A stretch of 52,439 bases of DNA from a virus (Duplodnaviria > Caudoviricetes), in the IMG/VR virus record IMGVR_UViG_3300031772_000049, positions 1-52,439 of that record, one strand, 5' to 3'. How positions within the stretch are numbered: position 1 is the stretch's first letter; every line of letters starts with the position of its first letter. Both the position numbers and the translations under genes were made by a program. The notes beneath the pieces were generated by a model that was not told the origin of the DNA, did not search any database, and saw only the letters and a list, made by a program, of their open reading frames with translations. Shown here in pieces: positions 3,131-50,992 of the stretch.

Positions 3131-3645
3131 ATGAGACATTTAAAGATTATATAAAGAAGGTTGATCTGGTCGAGTGGAAAAAATTAAAGCCTTTTCAACC
3201 GGACGATTTTAAAAAGATTACAAAAGACCAATTGAATAAATTGAAAACCAGTTTATTAAGAAACGGATTAAAAAGTCCGTTTCTTGTCTGGCAAGATGGG
3301 AAGACTTTATGGTGTCTTGATGGACATACGAGAATACCTGTACTGAAATTACTTGAGGACGAGGGAGTTGATGTTCCTGAGAAATTGTCGGCGGTGTTTG
3401 TAGATTGCAAGACAAAGCAGGACGCCAAGAAAGCAATTTTGATTTATAATTCTCACTATGCAAGTATCCAGCAAGAGCCGCTATTTGATTTTATTCAGGA
3501 CTTGAATTTTGATGAAGTGCGGTGCGAAATTGACATTCCGAATGTATACCTCGATGCACATTTCGAATTTAAAAATACTGAAAAGGAAATATCGGGTGAT
3601 CTTGATACTAATGTTGAATGCCCGAAATGCGGGTACAAATGGTAA
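3127..3645 (+). CDS. ParB/Srx-like N-terminal domain protein with C-terminal CPKCG knuckle
   Basis: LDGHTR motif; common partner upstream of phage methyltransferases and terS. Confidence 0.7.
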   Translation: MNETFKDYIKKVDLVEWKKLKPFQPDDFKKITKDQLNKLKTSLLRNGLKSPFLVWQDGKTLWCLDGHTRIPVLKLLEDEGVDVPEKLSAVFVDCKTKQDAKKAILIYNSHYASIQQEPLFDFIQDLNFDEVRCEIDIPNVYLDAHFEFKNTEKEISGDLDTNVECPKCGYKW

Positions 3646-4637
3646 GCGAGTATACAGTAATTTCTACTTTTGCGGGATGCGGGGGAAGCTCTCTAGGTTA
3701 TAAATGGGCAGGGTATAAGGAAGTGCTTGCGGTTGAATGGGATTCTAATGCAGTAGAAACGTTTAAGTTGAATTTTCCTGAAGTTCCCATATATCATGAT
3801 GATATTAGAAATTTGTCTGGAAAAATTTGTTTAGAACTATCTAGTATGAATAAGGGGGAATTAGATATTTTTGATGGGTCTCCGCCGTGTCAAGGGTTTT
3901 CTCTTTCTAGAGGGAAAAGAAATGTATGTGACCCGCGAAATGATTTATTTCTTGAGTATGTTCGATTGATAAAAGAGTTGGGCCCAAAAATTTTTATTAT
4001 GGAAAATGTTTCAGGAATGATAAAAGGTAAAATGAAGGGAAAGTATCTTGAGATATGGGAAAATTTAATGCAATTAAATTATAATGTAAAATCAAAACTT
4101 ATGAATGCAATGTGGTATGACGTTCCCCAATCAAGAGAACGTATGTTTTTTATTGGCGTTCGAAAAGATTTAAATATCGTGCCATCATTTCCGCGACCTC
4201 TTGAGAAAGTGATTACTGTAAAAGAAGCCTTATTAAACGTTGAAGTAGGATTGGTACCAGAGTTTAATGATAAGTATTCTCTCTATTATGATAAAATTAA
4301 ATATTCTAAGTCGGCCCAAAGTATTATAGGAAAAGGTTTTAATAATTGTAAAAAAGTTCATCCAGAAAAGCCGAGTCCTACACTTTTAAAATTTCAGACA
4401 GGGAGGGGGTTCGCAACAACCGTTCATTATTCCGAGAAACGAGCATTATCAATAAATGAGGCTAAAAGGTTGTCAAGTTTTCCGGATGATTTTAAGTTTA
4501 TTGGGGGGTATTCCGAGCAATGGGCGCGAATAGGTAATTCAGTTATGCCTAAAATGATGTATCATATTGCTAAACATGTAAAAGAAAATATATTGGATTG
4601 TTATTATGCAACAGGTGGGAAGCCTGTAAAATTATAA
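3639..4637 (+). CDS. dcm: DNA (cytosine-5) methyltransferase
   Basis: FAGCGG, GSPPCQGFS, ENV, QSRER and IGNSV motifs. Confidence 0.95.
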   Translation: MVSEYTVISTFAGCGGSSLGYKWAGYKEVLAVEWDSNAVETFKLNFPEVPIYHDDIRNLSGKICLELSSMNKGELDIFDGSPPCQGFSLSRGKRNVCDPRNDLFLEYVRLIKELGPKIFIMENVSGMIKGKMKGKYLEIWENLMQLNYNVKSKLMNAMWYDVPQSRERMFFIGVRKDLNIVPSFPRPLEKVITVKEALLNVEVGLVPEFNDKYSLYYDKIKYSKSAQSIIGKGFNNCKKVHPEKPSPTLLKFQTGRGFATTVHYSEKRALSINEAKRLSSFPDDFKFIGGYSEQWARIGNSVMPKMMYHIAKHVKENILDCYYATGGKPVKL

Positions 4638-5058: not shown

Positions 5059-5133
5059 TAGCCGTTCTCGCGGCTACATGGTGAGGGCGACAACAATGCC
5101 AGCTACTCACCAAACACTAAAATGTGACGAGAG
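5059..5133 (+). ncRNA. Dispersed tracr/omega-RNA-like scaffold fused to CRISPR-repeat 3' end (copy C)
   Basis: TAGCCG-TTCTCG-CGGCTA hairpin, GGTGAG...CTCACC stem, ends ATGTGACGAGAG (repeat end is ATGTGATGAGAG); homologous to 48375-48316 on the minus strand. Confidence 0.75.
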
Positions 5134-6430
5134 AAAAAGAAACCTAACGACTGACGATTTAAAGTTGTACATGCAATATCCCCATGTGCTCGGGCACGTC
5201 CTTGGCTATCCTGATTTAATCCCTCTACATTCTGAATGGATTGTCAATGCCTGGCTGAATAATAAATCATTTGCCATGCAGGCACATCGTAACTCATACA
5301 AAACTACCGCTATCATCGTGGTGGGCTGCGTATGGTATCTTTTGTTTTACGACCCTAATGCAACCATTTTAATTATTCGTAAGGCGGAGCAGGATGCACA
5401 GAAAATCGTGCAGACAATCCAATCTCATTTCTTAAACCCGGTCATTCAATTTTTGGGAAAACTTTTATATAAATGCGATACCCTACAATCAGAGCAGTGG
5501 TCAAGATCAAGTTTGAGACTATCAATTAAGACCACGCCGAGCCCTGAAGGTAATGTTGAGGCCAAGGGCACGTCATCGGCGGTGGTAGGGTCTCACTATG
5601 ACTTTATATTCCCTGATGACATTATTACCATACGGGACAGGGTATCAAAAGCTGAACGTGACTGGACAAAACTTTTTGTCAATGAGCTTTCAAACATCAA
5701 GAAAGAGGGCGGGAAAATTTTCTTTTCCGGTACCCCTTGGCATCCTGATGACGCGTGGAAAAATATCCCTGAGCCGAAAAAATATCCTATCGGGTCGGTC
5801 GATATCCCAGGATTTACGCAAGATGTTATTCAAAATAAAATAAAGGAATTAAAGCAAAGTAATTCCGTGTCCCTTTTTTCGGCGAACTATGAGCTCTCCC
5901 ATATTGCTGACATCGACCGGCTTTTTGGCGAACCTGATTACGCGCCATGGCCTGAAAGCTCATCGCAGATTATTGCATATCTGGACCCGGCGTATTCAGG
6001 GGACAATCACACGGCATTGGCTATGGGAGCCCGTCTGGATGCTTCTATTGTCGTATGCGGGTGGGTGTGGCGGCAAGACGTGACAGAGTTATATGATGTA
6101 ATAGTCAATATTTTAAATGATTACAAGTGCGGGACATTGTACGTGGAAACAAATGCCGATAAAGGATTGTCCGTTCGGGATTTTCAAAAGAAATATCCGT
6201 CAGTCATTGGTAGAAATGAGTCTCAAAATAAACACATAAAAATAGTTTCATTTGTAAAAAATAACTGGACAAAAATAAAATTTTCTGACACTATCAATAA
6301 TGATTTTTTAATGCAAGTTATGGAGTACCAAGAAGGACAAGAACCTGACGACGGGGTCGACGCCCTTTCTGGACTTTGCCGGGAAATGGGATTGTCTGGG
6401 TCCACCGAATTAAGAATGAGGTATATATAA
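5096..6430 (+). CDS. terL: Terminase large subunit
   Basis: AHRNSYKT Walker A variant, IFPDD Walker B, GTPWH, nuclease DPA...PDDGVDA; start uncertain (5078 or 5096, the latter has GGTGAGGG 8 nt upstream). Confidence 0.9.
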   Translation: MPATHQTLKCDERKRNLTTDDLKLYMQYPHVLGHVLGYPDLIPLHSEWIVNAWLNNKSFAMQAHRNSYKTTAIIVVGCVWYLLFYDPNATILIIRKAEQDAQKIVQTIQSHFLNPVIQFLGKLLYKCDTLQSEQWSRSSLRLSIKTTPSPEGNVEAKGTSSAVVGSHYDFIFPDDIITIRDRVSKAERDWTKLFVNELSNIKKEGGKIFFSGTPWHPDDAWKNIPEPKKYPIGSVDIPGFTQDVIQNKIKELKQSNSVSLFSANYELSHIADIDRLFGEPDYAPWPESSSQIIAYLDPAYSGDNHTALAMGARLDASIVVCGWVWRQDVTELYDVIVNILNDYKCGTLYVETNADKGLSVRDFQKKYPSVIGRNESQNKHIKIVSFVKNNWTKIKFSDTINNDFLMQVMEYQEGQEPDDGVDALSGLCREMGLSGSTELRMRYI

Positions 6431-6550
6431 AATGACGGTCGAATCGCTCGTAAAGATTGAAAACGAAATAAAAAATAAATATGATTTCAATACCCTCCGA
6501 AATAAAATACGACTGATTAAACTTGAGGAAAGGGCAGAGGTGCTGGCGAC

Positions 6551-10488: not shown

Positions 10489-10577
10489 CAGCCGTTCTCA
10501 CGGCTGAAGGGTGAGGGTAGCGATTTACTGCTAAGCCACTCACCAGACCTCATGTCGATAGGCGAATAGGATGAGAG
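10489..10577 (+). ncRNA. Dispersed tracr/omega-RNA-like scaffold fused to CRISPR-repeat 3' end (copy B)
   Basis: 54/60 ungapped identity to 48375-48316 (minus strand); CAGCCG-TTCTCA-CGGCTG hairpin; ends GATGAGAG, identical to the repeat 3' end. Confidence 0.85.
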
Positions 10578-45776: not shown

Positions 45777-45961
45777 CTCGGCACATCCTCCATACCATTA
45801 AATAAATTTACCTTAAACTTTTCAATATCCCGTTCTATTGCATTAAGCCTTTTACCCATAAAAATAAAAGTCTCTGACAATACAATCATCGATACAAAAT
45901 TCACGATTGAGAAAATTATTATGATGGTCAATATCGCGCCGTGTTTACGTTCATCGCTCAT
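45773..45961 (-). CDS. Small membrane protein
   Basis: Hydrophobic N-terminus; ATGA overlap with polA. Confidence 0.45.
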   Translation of the reverse strand: MSDERKHGAILTIIIIFSIVNFVSMIVLSETFIFMGKRLNAIERDIEKFKVNLFNGMEDVPR

Positions 45962-47844
45962 TTAAAATACCTCTTTGACATAAAACTTTCTGTTTTCAAC
46001 GGAAACCCCTTAAACCATTCCGGCGGGACGTTCATTATAGTATCAAATACTTTTAATTTCGCCTTTGCCTGCGTGGTCAATGCCTGGGCGACCACCTCAT
46101 CATGCACACTCATGATCGGGAATATCTCCACTTTATCAAGCTCAAGCATCGCGTGGCATAGTAAGTCCCGTGCAATGGCCTGGACGATGTTTTCAGTAAT
46201 AAGTCCGCCCCATAATTTTACGGTCATATTCTGCGCAAAATTTAAAAATGATATCCCCTCGGGACCCCTGGTCACACGATGATAGTACAGGTCCCGGCCA
46301 GAGGGCAGTTTAATAGATACATAGCCCTTGTCGGCATGTAATAGCATACCATTTACTTTTACTTTCTTGCCCTTATTAACCAGTACATAATTAAAAGCCG
46401 ACTCAATCGATGCCCAGAATTGCACAATATTTTTAAAGCTTGATCGATAAGTATAGATTGCTTTTTCGGCGGTGTGAATATTGATCGCCAATCCCTGCGC
46501 CTGGCATACCTCAAAAAATCTATTATGACCCATCCCATATCCTGCTCCTAAAATTACACTTTTCCCAAGGTGCCTTTCTTTTTTTGTCACGTCATCCAGG
46601 GGCTTTTGATAAATTACGGCTGCCATTTTTTTATACAGGTCATCCCCTTTTCGATACGCCTCAATCAATATCTTTTCCCCCGCAATCCAGGCAAGTACCC
46701 GCGCTTCAATTGCGGAAAAGTCGCCCATTAAAAATACGTGCCCTTTATCGGGGATAATCATTCCGGGTAATACTTTTTTAGCTGCGGTCATAGTTTCAAT
46801 TACTGGAACTTTATCCGCCAATAAATCCTTTAATAATGCCGCCTGTTCTTTTTCTGTTTGTCCACCCTTAGGTAGATTATGGGGCTGGAAGCCTACCCCG
46901 GACCATCGACCCGTATTCGCCCGATAATATTGCAAAAAATACCGCAACCTGCCATCAGGGGACACCCGATCAATCAATGCGGAATACTTCTTGATTGATG
47001 AGCGGGATAAAAACAAACGCAACTCAAGCATGGCACGGGCATCCGCGTCAAGATTCGGATTTAATAATATATCCTTGATTGTTTTTTCCTGCGCATTGGC
47101 GATTGATATATTAAAATTGTCCTTTAAATACTTTTGTAATTGTTTCGGTGACCGGACATTTACCCCCTTTTCTTCCATCCGTTTTTCGGCATCCAGGGTC
47201 GCGGCATTGACTAGCATGTCTATCTTTTTGAGAGCCTTGACATCAATATGTATACCATGAATGTTTTGTCTACGGTCAAGATTCATAATCGGCTTTTCAA
47301 TTGCAATATTGTCGTACTTCGCTAATCTATTATATACCTTTTCAGTCAATTCCACGTCTTGTTTACAATACATAATCATGGTATCAAGTTCAGCCGCCGG
47401 TATGGGATTAAATTCACCCTTACGATTAGGCTTGCTATACGTTTGTATCAGGTGCTTACCCACCGCGAGCTTGCTCTCCCCGAGTTTTAAGACGCCGCAC
47501 AGAGGTTCTAAGCCCCCGGGTAGCGCCATGCAGCGTGCCATGTTAGCGGTACATTCCCATCGTAATGGGTCCGCGAGGGCCAGGGGAAAGCCGTATTTTT
47601 TACGTAGTACATTAGCAAATAGCGCATACTCAAAAAGGGCATTGTGCGCAACGAATGTATATTGGTGATTGACATGAAAAGCATCCGGTACACTATCTCC
47701 GGGCACCCACACGTTGACTTTATTGCCCTCGACCTTATACGCCACACAAAAAACATCGGTTGATGAATGCTCGGCATACCGCCATGCGCCCACTTCAACC
47801 AAGTCCGCTTTTGATCGTGTTTCAATATCAATAAATATTTTCAT
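45958..47844 (-). CDS. polA: Family A DNA polymerase with 3'-5' exonuclease
   Basis: DIET, AHNA.FE, YCKQDV exonuclease motifs; TGRWS, DFSAIEAR, R..GK...LG.GYG, VHDE. Confidence 0.93.
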   Translation of the reverse strand: MKIFIDIETRSKADLVEVGAWRYAEHSSTDVFCVAYKVEGNKVNVWVPGDSVPDAFHVNHQYTFVAHNALFEYALFANVLRKKYGFPLALADPLRWECTANMARCMALPGGLEPLCGVLKLGESKLAVGKHLIQTYSKPNRKGEFNPIPAAELDTMIMYCKQDVELTEKVYNRLAKYDNIAIEKPIMNLDRRQNIHGIHIDVKALKKIDMLVNAATLDAEKRMEEKGVNVRSPKQLQKYLKDNFNISIANAQEKTIKDILLNPNLDADARAMLELRLFLSRSSIKKYSALIDRVSPDGRLRYFLQYYRANTGRWSGVGFQPHNLPKGGQTEKEQAALLKDLLADKVPVIETMTAAKKVLPGMIIPDKGHVFLMGDFSAIEARVLAWIAGEKILIEAYRKGDDLYKKMAAVIYQKPLDDVTKKERHLGKSVILGAGYGMGHNRFFEVCQAQGLAINIHTAEKAIYTYRSSFKNIVQFWASIESAFNYVLVNKGKKVKVNGMLLHADKGYVSIKLPSGRDLYYHRVTRGPEGISFLNFAQNMTVKLWGGLITENIVQAIARDLLCHAMLELDKVEIFPIMSVHDEVVAQALTTQAKAKLKVFDTIMNVPPEWFKGFPLKTESFMSKRYFK

Positions 47845-47870
47845 ATTATTTCATCAAACTCCGTTTTACG
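47838..47870. repeat. 33-bp direct repeat, copy 1 (polA RBS and start, abutting the terminal CRISPR repeat)
   Basis: TTTTCATATTATTTCATCAAACTCCGTTTTACG, identical to 49563-49595. Confidence 0.95.
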
Positions 47871-47871
47871 T

Positions 47872-48234
47872 CTCTCATCACACGCGCCCGCGCGAGTTGC
47901 AGGACCATAAAAAGTAATATGGTACAATGCAATCATCTCTCATCACACGCGCCCGCGCGAGTTGCAGGCAAGCAATTATTCAAAAAGCAATTACACGTCA
48001 AACTCTCATCACATGCGCCCGCGCGAGTTGCAGGGTTATGTTTCGTCTGTCAAATATGGTTCCCTTCTCTCATCACATGCGCCCGCGCGAGTTGCAGGAA
48101 GTCCTCTGTTTTGCTTTTCTTGACGTGGTGTATTCTCTCATCACATGCGCCCGCGCGAGTTGCAGGGATAAAACCCCCATCCCTGCAAGCCTGATTAACA
48201 GCCTCTCATCACATGCGCCCGCGCGAGTTGCAGG
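47872..48234 (-). CRISPR. CRISPR array, six 32-bp repeats and five spacers of 32-36 bp
   Basis: Repeat (minus strand) CCTGCAACTCGCGCGGGCGC(A/G)TGTGATGAGAG at + positions 47872, 47937, 48003, 48067, 48135, 48203; spacers 33, 34, 32, 36, 36 bp. Confidence 0.97.
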
Positions 48235-48236
48235 TG

Positions 48237-48375
48237 CCTGCATGTAAACGCTGATTGATTGAGCTCATGCGCCCGCACTTCCGCTAACCTTACATTTCTC
48301 GTCTATTGGCGTGGTGTCTGGTGAGTGGCTTAGCGGTAACCCGTTGCCCTCACCCTCCAGCCGTGAGAACGGCTG
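48237..48375 (-). ncRNA. Putative tracrRNA/omega-RNA scaffold (copy A), overlapping the cas12f 3' end
   Basis: Loop TTCTCA complementary to repeat end TGAGAG; GGTGAG/CTCACC stem; 3' anti-repeat TTACATGCAGG pairs with repeat CCTGCA and GCATGTGA. Confidence 0.8.
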
Positions 48376-49569
48376 AGCATCAAATGATGCTATATTCAAA
48401 GCGGCATTGTAATCCGCATTGATTTCTAATCCGCAGGATTGACATACGAAATGCTGTTGATCAACCCTGTTTTCTTTCGCCCGATGACCGCATCCAGAAC
48501 ATGTCTGTGATGTATATCGGGGATTTATATATTCAATGTCGATACCCTGATTTTTTGCCTTATACTCAATCATTTTTTGTAATTGATAATATGTCCAGTT
48601 CCTGCGTAAAAATTTATTCTGAATATCATCATGTATACCCGTCAATTTTTCCATACGTATCATCCCGACATTATTAGCCACACAAAATTTTATGGTTTCC
48701 CTTGATAATAAATGGTTATAGTTTGTACGCACTTCATGCTCTTTGTTTTCAAACCTGTCCAGGGCTTTTAATTTTTTTGTCCGTCCGTGCCCGCTGGAAG
48801 TTAATTTTATATTTTTTTGTAATGATCTCTTTTTTTGAATGCTGACTTTACGGGTCATTTTTAATATGTCGTCCATGCCCCCCAGGAATAAACGTTTCGG
48901 GGTGTCTTTTATGGCGAGCGATAATAAATTAAATGAATTAGCGTTTGAGTCAATCCCGCATACAATATTTTTATTCGGGGACTTTGTTATTATTTCATGT
49001 GAATGAACAATGTATAAATACCAGAAGCCTTTTCTTTTTATTAATTTTGAATCATGCTGGTCATATGCCCCCGATAGTATGCCGTCAAGAATTACAGATA
49101 ATGACTTATCTTTATTTATGCCGATCATTTCAAACTTTGTTTTATTCATGGCCGATGGTTCTAAAAAATATCTACCATCAGTTTTATATATTTTTCGCCC
49201 CTGCTTTCGGCATGGAATTGAATCATCTTTCATTCGTGGTATAGAGCGCATATTTTTTAATATATCTTTTTTAAATTTTAAAAATTCATTAACCGCATCA
49301 ATCCGCGCGTGAGAAGCAAGAGTTTTTGTAGCAAATTCAGGATCAGTTTTAAAACTATCAATATACGAGGCATACGATAACGACCGGCCGTCTTCTTTTT
49401 TCACTGTTTTATTATCAATATTGTTCTGCATATATGCCACACACCGACGAATAGCAATATTGCGTTCTCGATTTAATTCGTTGCTCACGCACGCCATCCA
49501 GTACATGATTTTTTTCCAATCATCACCGCAAATGATAAGTTTTATTTTAGCTACTGCCCGTGTTTTCAT
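48265..49569 (-). CDS. cas12f: Cas12f1-like (TnpB-derived) miniature type V effector
   Basis: RuvC-I VCGID, GHGRTKKLK, NH..SR, RuvC-II MEKL, NWTYY.LQ..I.YKA...GI, P.YTSQ.CS.CG, C..CG, RuvC-III NADYNAA.NI; adjacent array. Confidence 0.9.
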   Translation of the reverse strand: MKTRAVAKIKLIICGDDWKKIMYWMACVSNELNRERNIAIRRCVAYMQNNIDNKTVKKEDGRSLSYASYIDSFKTDPEFATKTLASHARIDAVNEFLKFKKDILKNMRSIPRMKDDSIPCRKQGRKIYKTDGRYFLEPSAMNKTKFEMIGINKDKSLSVILDGILSGAYDQHDSKLIKRKGFWYLYIVHSHEIITKSPNKNIVCGIDSNANSFNLLSLAIKDTPKRLFLGGMDDILKMTRKVSIQKKRSLQKNIKLTSSGHGRTKKLKALDRFENKEHEVRTNYNHLLSRETIKFCVANNVGMIRMEKLTGIHDDIQNKFLRRNWTYYQLQKMIEYKAKNQGIDIEYINPRYTSQTCSGCGHRAKENRVDQQHFVCQSCGLEINADYNAALNIASFDAQPFSRLEGEGNGLPLSHSPDTTPIDEKCKVSGSAGA

Positions 49570-49595
49570 ATTATTTCATCAAACTCCGTTTTACG
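49563..49595. repeat. 33-bp direct repeat, copy 2 (DUF2800 gene end and cas12f start)
   Basis: Identical to 47838-47870. Confidence 0.95.
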
Positions 49596-50645
49596 CGGTA
49601 CTAGCTTAATCAATTCAGGGGTGTTGTAATACCCTTCCAGATTTTTCTTCCCCGCAATCTTTTCAAGTTGCGCGGGGCTTTTCAGCTTTTTATCAAATAA
49701 ATCATCCTTCAAGTACCCAAAGTCTTCAATCACTTTTTTATCATCATTCCATCGCCGATGCCCGTATCCGGTCCCGCGCATGAACAGTGACAACGTGGTC
49801 CCCGCTTCCAGGGCTTTCATCAAAGTCAATTCAATAGCATTCAAATAATTCTCTATATTCTTTTTATTCATGTAAATCTTTTCAAGTACTTCAATCGATG
49901 CCGAGTGTTCCCCCGCCTGCGCCAGGGTATCAACCATTGAGATATACTCACCCATTTTCGGGCATACCAGCATGCAGGGGCAGAATGTGCACCAATTGCC
50001 GGTCGTGCATGAGGTGTTTACAGTAATTTCATCCAGGGTCCTTTCAATTTGTTTTAAAAAATATTCAACTGTATAATCTTTATACTCGCTTTTCGCATGC
50101 CGCTCAGTCTCATTATAATAGAAGGGTTGTACGATATGCAGGACCACACTCATATCGCCGGATAATTGCTTTCTCATATTCCACAGCACCACGCACGCAG
50201 TAAAATATAATTGGTCAAATGCAGAACTTGAATAATCCCAATTGCCCGTCTTGAGATCATACACATCCAGGCGTCCCGAACTTAAAATCATCGCGTCCAT
50301 TTTTGCCACACACTCGAACCCTTGAATCGTTTCCCGATACTTTTCTTCAACAATCAACTCGCCTTTTAATTTCTTTTTGTCCTTTAATATAATGCCTGAA
50401 TAATACTTTGCAACTTCGGTCACCGCCTTATACTCGTTATCGTCCTTAGCATACCCCGCATCCTTCATGGCCTGAGCCATTGCCATACCCCCGAGTACAT
50501 TCTCGCCCACCTTATGAATTTTCTTACCACGTTCGGCGACGGCCAATACCGGACGATACTCAAGGATTTTATCCATGGCCTGGTATAGATGCAACGACCC
50601 TGGGCAATGAATAATTCGGTTAACTTCGCTTGCTTGTATTTTCAT
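49566..50645 (-). CDS. DUF2800 / Cas4-like PD-(D/E)xK nuclease of the phage replication module
   Basis: S..R...CPGS, A.RG..IH, D......V.DLKTG, QL..., G.WC.FC....C, KL.SPAQLEK. Confidence 0.85.
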   Translation of the reverse strand: MKIQASEVNRIIHCPGSLHLYQAMDKILEYRPVLAVAERGKKIHKVGENVLGGMAMAQAMKDAGYAKDDNEYKAVTEVAKYYSGIILKDKKKLKGELIVEEKYRETIQGFECVAKMDAMILSSGRLDVYDLKTGNWDYSSSAFDQLYFTACVVLWNMRKQLSGDMSVVLHIVQPFYYNETERHAKSEYKDYTVEYFLKQIERTLDEITVNTSCTTGNWCTFCPCMLVCPKMGEYISMVDTLAQAGEHSASIEVLEKIYMNKKNIENYLNAIELTLMKALEAGTTLSLFMRGTGYGHRRWNDDKKVIEDFGYLKDDLFDKKLKSPAQLEKIAGKKNLEGYYNTPELIKLVPRKTEFDEII

Positions 50646-50963: not shown

Positions 50964-50992
50964 AACATACATAACAAACGAAACCTTGTCAA
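50964..50992 (-). promoter_or_regulatory. Sigma70-like promoter of the DUF2800-cas12f-CRISPR-polA operon
   Basis: TTGACA-17 nt-TATGTT on the minus strand. Confidence 0.65.

Follow-up and report, generated by a model that had tools for sequence, protein, structure and literature searches.

Compact RNA-guided nucleases of the Cas12f and TnpB groups have been described from several angles. Passages of PMC10691335 place the CRISPR arrays of Cas12f systems downstream of the gene, with no adaptation genes, and also describe forms in which half a repeat is fused with the trans-activating CRISPR RNA (tracrRNA) while the 3' end of the repeat is retained. In TnpB omegaRNA and in Cas12f guides, a 5' segment forms a pseudoknot with the nucleotides just before the guide, as set out in part of PMC10097598, and portions of PMC13186708 report that Cas12f orthologues cut 20–23 nt from the protospacer adjacent motif (PAM). 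TnpB is described in sections of 10.1101/2023.11.30.569447 as spreading by targeted cleavage and homologous recombination, and passages of 10.1101/2020.10.09.333658, which cites Varble 2019 and Watson 2018, report that recombination between a targeting spacer and the phage genome enhances the transfer of CRISPR systems. Here, we compare with these systems a Cas12f-like gene and its CRISPR array in IMGVR_UViG_3300031772_000049, a linear IMG/VR virus record (Duplodnaviria; Caudoviricetes) of 52,439 nucleotides, estimated to be about 45% complete, which was analyzed at full length and is called the window below. The cassette of this sediment phage lies between two replication genes, DUF2800 and polA, and is bounded by two copies of one 33-bp sequence.

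We favor, with moderate confidence, the reading that this 33-bp pair is a recombination scar, in which the insertion of cas12f, tracr and CRISPR array would have duplicated the translational junction that it entered. The features concerned are the following, listed in minus-strand order.

49566 to 50645, minus strand: DUF2800 / PD-(D/E)XK nuclease gene, 359 aa (PF10926, E 3.7e-25)
49563 to 49595, minus strand: left 33-bp copy (X-A), with the C-terminal codons and stop of DUF2800 and, in an ATGA overlap, the start of cas12f
48265 to 49569, minus strand: Cas12f-like RNA-guided nuclease, 434 aa (PF07282, E 4.5e-26)
47872 to 48234, minus strand: CRISPR array of six 32-nt repeats and five spacers, starting 30 nt after the cas12f stop
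47872 to 47903, minus strand: terminal repeat of the array (R6)
47871, minus strand: single A between the terminal repeat and the right copy, position 1 of the would-be guide
47838 to 47870, minus strand: right 33-bp copy (X-B), in guide position 3' of the terminal repeat and holding the polA start region including its ATG
45958 to 47844, minus strand: polA, family A DNA polymerase, 628 aa

The 33-mer is present exactly twice in the whole window, both times on the minus strand, and 0 of 100 dinucleotide shuffles gave any match. A repeat search recovered the same pair, at a spacing of 1725 bp, and found no inverted repeats at the cassette ends. The 1725-bp unit between the copies is made up of the Cas12f-like gene and the six repeats. 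X-A carries the final nine DUF2800 codons and the stop, which is overlapped by the ATG of the cas12f-like open reading frame (ORF); relative to the start codon, the duplicated sequence covers −26 to +7, roughly the ribosome-binding window. Identity between the copies stops sharply at the 33-bp limits, with CCG vs. AGA before and CACGG vs. TATTT after. Removal of one copy together with the cassette in silico gave ...ATAATATGAAAATATTT, with the stop of DUF2800 overlapping the start of polA (ATGA). This bore out the original prediction, which was made from the sequence of the window and held that a 33-bp duplication bounds the cassette and that deletion restores an ATGA-coupled DUF2800–polA junction. 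Together with the preceding A, X-B amounts to 34 nt, inside the range of the array's own spacers (36, 36, 32, 34 and 33 nt in minus-strand order, i.e., 32–36 nt). The first 24 nt 3' of the last repeat match 49573–49596 with one mismatch, at guide position 1, and the 5' flank of this match at X-A reads ...CTAGTACC. The X-A counterpart of A47871 is G, the third base of a DUF2800 Pro codon (CCG), and the difference is synonymous. The further description of the duplicate as a spacer-sized sequence 1 nt after the last repeat, matching the left copy except at position 1 and with GTACC upstream of the match, held in each respect.

We infer the order of events, and the role of selection in it, as follows. 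In the ancestral state the DUF2800 stop would have overlapped the polA start (ATGA), and the cassette of cas12f, tracr and CRISPR would have been inserted at this DUF2800/polA junction of the phage replication operon. Because of the ATGA overlap, no insertion leaves DUF2800 and polA both intact unless the junction is duplicated, and a product would have been viable only if it carried a second copy of the junction together with the translation-initiation region, −26 to +7 around the ATG. X-A would now couple cas12f translation to DUF2800, X-B would retain the native polA start region, and operon read-through would place X-B in guide position as a by-product of its abutting the terminal repeat. 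Since a duplication of about 30 nt is what selection for polA translation would keep, its likeness in length to a spacer need not mean anything. The duplication could have been made by one-sided homologous recombination with an illegitimate join, or by recombination between an array-terminal spacer and a protospacer. As X-A keeps all 33 nt and the 5' flank of the empty site, a guide cannot tell empty from occupied alleles. The terminal guide would be either inert, as presumed here, its flank being no PAM, or self-damaging, and the sole escape from these outcomes would be protection by the mismatch at position 1.

A comparison of 65 Cas12f loci, each with an array downstream in the same orientation and the window among them, yielded a second, unrelated case. 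The array-distal flank was duplicated upstream of cas12f in two of the 65, the window (33 bp, z 24) and locus L198 (z 74), while the next-best locus reached z 5.4 with a raw score of 9. L198 is a Clostridia genome bin whose Cas12f cassette has 18 repeats. Its duplicate (3608–3702 and 6392–6487, 96 bp, 92.7% identity) consists of the last ~31 codons and stop of an upstream DUF5662 gene. Past this stop the left copy extends for a single nt; the right copy begins 25 nt beyond a degenerate last repeat, and the terminator-like hairpin of the gene comes after it. The upstream gene is likewise left intact, but the duplicate has another length and does not strictly abut the repeat. Cassette insertion that duplicates the end of the upstream gene has, on this evidence, recurred. 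A transposase target-site duplication was considered and dropped, given the lack of terminal inverted repeats and the differing duplication lengths, 33 bp here vs. 96 bp in L198. As a separate observation, the L198 repeat shares a pattern over its first 15 nt (TGCAAC.CGCGCG) with the repeat of the window.

Gene order around polA was followed in 160 polA loci obtained by profile searches, which are too distant to reveal an empty site at the nucleotide level. A cas12f match occurred in none of the 160. DUF2800 lies upstream of polA in six of the seven nearest distinct polA loci (39–49% identity): it directly adjoins polA in L013, is separated from it by one ORF of 60–154 aa in L090, L011, L016 and L012, and by an 85-nt gap in L014, while L010 has a different ORF upstream of polA. 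In L090, polA overlaps the stop of the upstream ORF. This synteny indicates that the cassette-free gene order is ancestral and that the junction is a variable spot. Relatives with an empty junction, on which the original prediction had counted, were not found at the nucleotide level in collections that may lack near-identical records; among 5.8 billion protein clusters, no polA came closer than 49% identity. The junction region had no match in the phage collection, the exact 33-mer was absent from viral_contigs, and a single-query search of viral_contigs with polA returned no relative. The closest Cas12f system, L251, is a 161-kb virus record whose protein is 37% identical over residues 6–395. 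Its related region (5270–5802) has six repeats, of which the last is a variant, and no flank duplication, so the duplication is not a family feature.

Among solved structures, the 434-aa protein is closest to 8HR5, 8J12/7WJU and 9I8Y (E 6e-46 to 8e-29), which parts of PMC13186708 give as CnCas12f1 (8HR5), AsCas12f1 (7WJU/8J12) and SpCas12f1 (9I8Y). All are Cas12f1 proteins, which supports the cas12f label given at the outset. Among the NCBIfam models, guided_TnpB scored 158 bits (cutoff 100) and the Cas12f2 model 118, below its cutoff of 450. Residues D207, E307 and D386 and cysteines C357, C360, C376 and C379 are invariant across 21 homologues; by analogy, these would be the acidic triad of RuvC and a zinc ribbon, and the nuclease looks intact. 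In its compact TnpB-like effector, a class of about 400–700 aa, and its downstream co-oriented array, the locus agrees with type V-F CRISPR-Cas12f. The two polA-proximal repeats carry a G variant and distal repeats are variant in L251 too, which marks the trailer end of the array there. The search for protospacers was negative throughout. The whole array gave only chance-level matches in the phage collection (E 2–5) and none in plasmids; the five spacers, the terminal pseudo-spacer, the flank guides of the scaffold elements described below and the repeat matched loci L007–L169 over at most 18 of 34 nt; 24-mers of spacers 1, 2 and 3 had no match in viral_contigs and a 25-mer of the repeat none in genome_contigs; and the L251 array had no match in phages. 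Without a protospacer, no PAM was derived.

Three matches to a core scaffold pattern were found in the window, against none expected, all of them co-oriented with the local genes.

48296 to 48375, minus strand: scaffold e1, tracrRNA- or omegaRNA-like, overlapping the 3' end of cas12f, with a hairpin, a stem and a repeat-like tail
5059 to 5133, plus strand: solo scaffold e2, whose loop TTCTCG and tail GACGAGAG covary
10489 to 10577, plus strand: solo scaffold e3, between the portal and Mu-F-like genes, with tail GATGAGAG followed by the start region of the downstream gene

Element e1 (80 nt) overlaps the last ~35 codons of cas12f, past the region alignable with homologues, and consists of the hairpin CAGCCG-TTCTCA-CGGCTG, the stem GGTGAG../..CTCACC and a degenerate repeat-like tail, GACGAGAA. 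The hairpin is preserved through compensatory changes in four copies, which affect the outermost pair in e2 and three pairs in L251. Its loop, TTCTCA, is conserved in the window and in L251, and in both it is fully complementary to TGAGAG, the 6 nt that end the repeat; e2 shows a joint change, to TTCTCG in the loop and CGAGAG in the tail. L251 has the same element in the same place and on the cas12f strand, followed by six repeats 23/32 identical to those of the window and oriented alike relative to cas12f. The 5' halves of the scaffolds paired with the repeat no better than with shuffled repeats, and Rfam gave no match. A tracrRNA on the opposite strand was considered and dropped because the L251 scaffold is co-oriented with cas12f and the loop is complementary to the repeat end. 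From these features we conclude that CRISPR RNAs (crRNAs) would run repeat-then-spacer on the minus strand, the polarity that the original prediction had taken for granted and that scaffold orientation, loop complementarity and the like arrangement in L251 all support. With this polarity, X-B lies in guide position.

Other genes in the window include those for a portal protein, a Mu-F-like protein and a C-5 methylase. The solo elements e2 and e3 are intergenic in the structural-gene cluster and have the same orientation, and their repeat-like tails end GA[T/C]GAGAG. Each is directly followed by its own flank, and these flanks have no second match in the window. The tail of e3 overlaps with the Mu-F-like gene's ribosome-binding region, and just upstream of e2 lies a gene for a C-5 cytosine DNA methylase (3618–4637, plus strand; PF00145, E 7.6e-65). 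The 161-kb L251 record holds the cas12f-linked scaffold only and no solo copies.

No terminator-like site was found on the minus strand from 50645 to 47844, and a promoter-like site lies at 50992–50964; the array is therefore probably read through within the replication operon, and a single transcript across DUF2800, the cassette and polA is plausible. Besides a 56-aa ORF inside the array, cas12f is the sole substantial coding-strand ORF between DUF2800 and polA. No TnpA was recognized there, although the other ORFs, short and on the opposite strand, were not scanned for it. Self-BLAST of the 52-kb window found no second cas12f copy in this record, which is only about 45% complete. A further short ORF spans the right-hand junction.

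47841 to 47936, minus strand: 31-codon ORF whose ATG is the very start of spacer 5; it reads on across the terminal repeat and X-B and has its stop in the polA ATGA overlap

This ORF could keep translational coupling for polA.

Parts of the region were present in 12 sediment runs, all of them DNA, and contigs were examined from four (runs X1–X4). These contigs, for which we take k to be 31, stop within the 33 bp or at its edge (47867; 49592/49593), and empty or excised forms could not be bridged by them. Relative to the window, run X2 showed 5/1390 mismatches in cas12f, 11/242 in DUF2800 and 9/93 in 5' polA; run X3 showed 4/588 and 5/591 in cas12f and 13/354 and 19/339 in DUF2800, with 5' polA not covered; and run X4 showed 5/923 in cas12f, 17/397 in DUF2800 and 44/618 and 22/217 in 5' polA. 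Contigs with zero to one difference were also present, indicating mixed strains. This pattern fits both a cassette that moved between backbones and ordinary mosaicism. At the protein level, variants of Cas12f, polA and DUF2800 at 96–99% identity were found on short contigs. Cas12f variants were 98–99% identical, and all three with a complete N-terminus start MKTRAV; the DUF2800 C-terminus was identical in four of four protein records; and most of the differences in P0181, a polA variant, fall within its first ~100 residues.

Strain divergence was concentrated at 47500–47840, the first ~100 polA codons, and at 49900–49950, a DUF2800 patch (ISM vs. LVL), while the remainder of polA was identical at the protein level between co-occurring strains. 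Two variant joints of the array region were also observed. In one, a natural variant found both in the Joint Genome Institute (JGI) protein record P0177 and, as the joint 48032 to 48313, in an X4 contig, the e1 stem (...CACTCACCAGACA) is joined directly to a CRISPR repeat with ~78 nt lost (48235–48312), which gives Cas12f another 7-residue C-terminus (...SPDTCNSRGRM). In the other, a contig of run X1, the first repeat is joined directly to spacer 4 (joint 48002 to 48203, skipping 48003–48202), and the depth over spacers 1–3 in this run was 0.88 vs. ~14 on either side. This joint may represent an array variant without the three cas12f-proximal spacers, i.e., gain or loss at the leader end. Both joints fall in repeats and are weak evidence alone.

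The original prediction had offered three readings of the duplicate, namely an insertion scar, a homing guide for empty DUF2800–polA junctions and an autorepression guide for cas12f. The first is favored by the synteny in six of seven relatives, the absence of cas12f from the 160 polA loci and the L198 case, while the homing guide is logically problematic in that its target is retained. Several points nevertheless weigh against a plain scar. X-B begins exactly 1 nt after a complete repeat and its length falls within 32–36 nt, neither of which a random join predicts; the sole mismatch lies at guide position 1, in the seed region, and, being synonymous, has the look of a protective change; no empty-site allele was found in these searches to anchor the scenario; and divergence in runs X2–X4 is 0.4–0.8% for cas12f vs. 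up to 3.7–5.6% for DUF2800 and 7–10% for 5' polA. A plain scar leaves the 1-nt abutment, the synonymous seed mismatch and the lower divergence of the cassette unexplained. Recombination between spacer and protospacer would explain the first of these, and a homing model would explain all three. The recombination route, which we consider unlikely although it stands highest among the alternatives, is a version of the scar in which the cassette was captured through a spacer. The last, 34-nt spacer of a donor array would have targeted the DUF2800/polA junction of this phage lineage, recombination of spacer with protospacer would have formed the right junction and a second join at a shared ATGAAAA the left one, and the phage segment between the crossovers would have been duplicated. 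The duplicate does begin where a spacer would and has the length of one, the homology ends exactly at the repeat/spacer border, position 1 being the sole mismatch, the two ORFs share the opening ATGAAAA, which gives the left junction a microhomology of 7 nt, and spacer–phage recombination of this sort has a precedent (passages of 10.1101/2020.10.09.333658). Against this, only coincidence would make the protospacer end just a few nt from the polA start, neither a donor nor a PAM was identified, and the L198 duplicate, at 96 bp, is longer than a spacer and starts 25 nt after its degenerate last repeat. Next in rank, and rather improbable, is a homing or drive guide: the crRNA of the terminal repeat and X-B would cut the empty DUF2800/polA junctions of co-infecting relatives, repair from the occupied genome through homology in X-A and X-B would copy the cassette, and the synonymous G would spare the resident X-A, with e2 and e3 acting likewise at their own sites, as TnpB omegaRNAs do. 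The guide position of X-B, the presence of all putative RuvC acidic positions, the TnpB-like arrangement of e2 and e3, each followed directly by its own flank, the much lower divergence of the cassette than of its flanks in three runs, the synonymous mismatch and a Cas12f cut distance of 20–23 nt, close to the 33-nt insertion point, are all consistent with it. Yet the resident X-A keeps the whole target and the empty-site flank, so a guide that cut empty sites would cut its own genome unless the mismatch at position 1 protects it, and all protection would hang on this one base. In addition, an empty allele with A at guide position 1 was not seen in these data, the flank GTACC is not T-rich, and L251, the closest relative, has neither the duplication nor solo scaffolds. 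The fuller form, in which Cas12f would act in part as a TnpB does and three fixed flank guides (terminal repeat plus X, e2 and e3) cleave insertion-free relatives and the cassette and solo elements all home during co-infection, is less probable again.

Regulation of cas12f by its own terminal guide ranks below these and is quite doubtful. Cas12f with the terminal crRNA would bind X-A at the cas12f start as a negative feedback, and the bound protein would halt the read-through that runs from DUF2800 on into cas12f, the array and polA. Cas9 is known to repress its own promoter with a natural single guide; such an autoregulatory guide, of the tracr-L type, matches its own promoter in part and binds without cleavage. 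The guide here would pair with the plus strand, which is the template of the minus-strand operon, and its target sits exactly at the cas12f start. However, with the putative nuclease positions intact and a 33-nt match, cutting would be expected if the PAM were permissive; a block would also shut off the downstream polA; and L251 has no such match. A tracr-L type guide was accordingly set aside as a candidate, since the match extends over 33 of its 34 nt and falls on a coding junction rather than a promoter-like site. Lower still, we see a slim chance that the copies are simply recombination handles, with which phage recombinases would cut out the cassette in circular form and insert it again at the empty junctions of relatives, the guide having no role. 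The 33-bp direct repeats and the lower divergence of the cassette than of the backbone would suit such a process, and the array and 3'-end variants show that the region recombines. Still, 33 bp is short for efficient exchange, and no excised or empty form was seen among the contigs, which break inside the 33 bp and could not show one. Last in rank, and close to negligible, is an assembly artefact in which the cassette was joined into the phage contig via the shared 33-mer. Short-k contigs do break at the copies, but the two junctions both keep the frame and have functional starts, 30 nt of X lie upstream of the ATG in the cas12f contigs of runs X1 and X2, the contigs of runs X1 (to 47867), X2 (to 47860) and X4 (to 47853) carry 16–30 nt of X upstream of polA, and three independent protein records start MKTRAV.

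If the duplication is only an insertion scar, the locus documents uptake by a phage of a whole Cas12f-CRISPR cassette into an operon of overlapping genes. It would also indicate that insertion can leave behind a terminal "self-targeting spacer" as a by-product, a caution for surveys of spacer targets. Were the guide to work, this would be the first natural CRISPR nuclease homing at its own insertion site with a duplicated target, and homing by all three guides would make this a natural gene drive built on CRISPR and carried by a virus, and a living intermediate that links omegaRNA with tracrRNA/crRNA. Whichever reading applies, the scaffold at the gene end and the two solo fusions offer a compact and testable system in which to study how omegaRNA split into tracrRNA and crRNA.

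The cassette resembles type V-F Cas12f1 systems (CnCas12f1, AsCas12f1, SpCas12f1) in its TnpB-like effector, its downstream array on the same strand, the scaffold region beside the gene and the lack of cas1, cas2 and cas4. Unlike those systems, its scaffold overlaps the 3' end of the ORF with 30 nt from the stop to the first repeat, it sits inside a phage replication operon, its distal flank repeats the proximal one, and two solo scaffolds lie elsewhere. The complementarity of loop and repeat end mirrors the pseudoknot of TnpB omegaRNA and Cas12f guides. With TnpB of IS200/IS605 elements it shares a scaffold overlapping the 3' end of the nuclease gene and, at three sites in the window, a scaffold or repeat end followed by genomic flank. 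It differs in having a real array and a single cas12f copy, and in a left copy that keeps the target whole; a TnpB flank guide hits only the empty joint, which the terminal guide of the window cannot do. An IS200/IS605 TnpB transposon was rejected as an identification, as several near-identical copies were not found in the window and the target is not reconstituted only in the empty site (49563–49600 is kept). Spacer–protospacer recombination likewise joins at the repeat/spacer border with spacer-length identity, but passages of 10.1101/2020.10.09.333658 report it for the transduction of host CRISPR loci, whereas here the insertion is stable and in a lytic-type replication operon. Elements e2 and e3, as a scaffold plus a repeat-like 3' end, are like the tracr/half-repeat fusions of Cas12f (re-emerged omegaRNA, RpoE-associated lineages), but the nuclease triad of the window is putatively intact, its array is full, and its fusions lie far from the gene, between structural genes. 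Phage homing endonuclease genes are also nuclease cassettes wedged between conserved essential genes and less diverged than their flanks, although their site is destroyed by insertion and the one in the window is preserved. A phage-borne Cas12f cassette is of a known kind; the flank duplication with its terminal self-match and the solo phage scaffolds are new variations within it.

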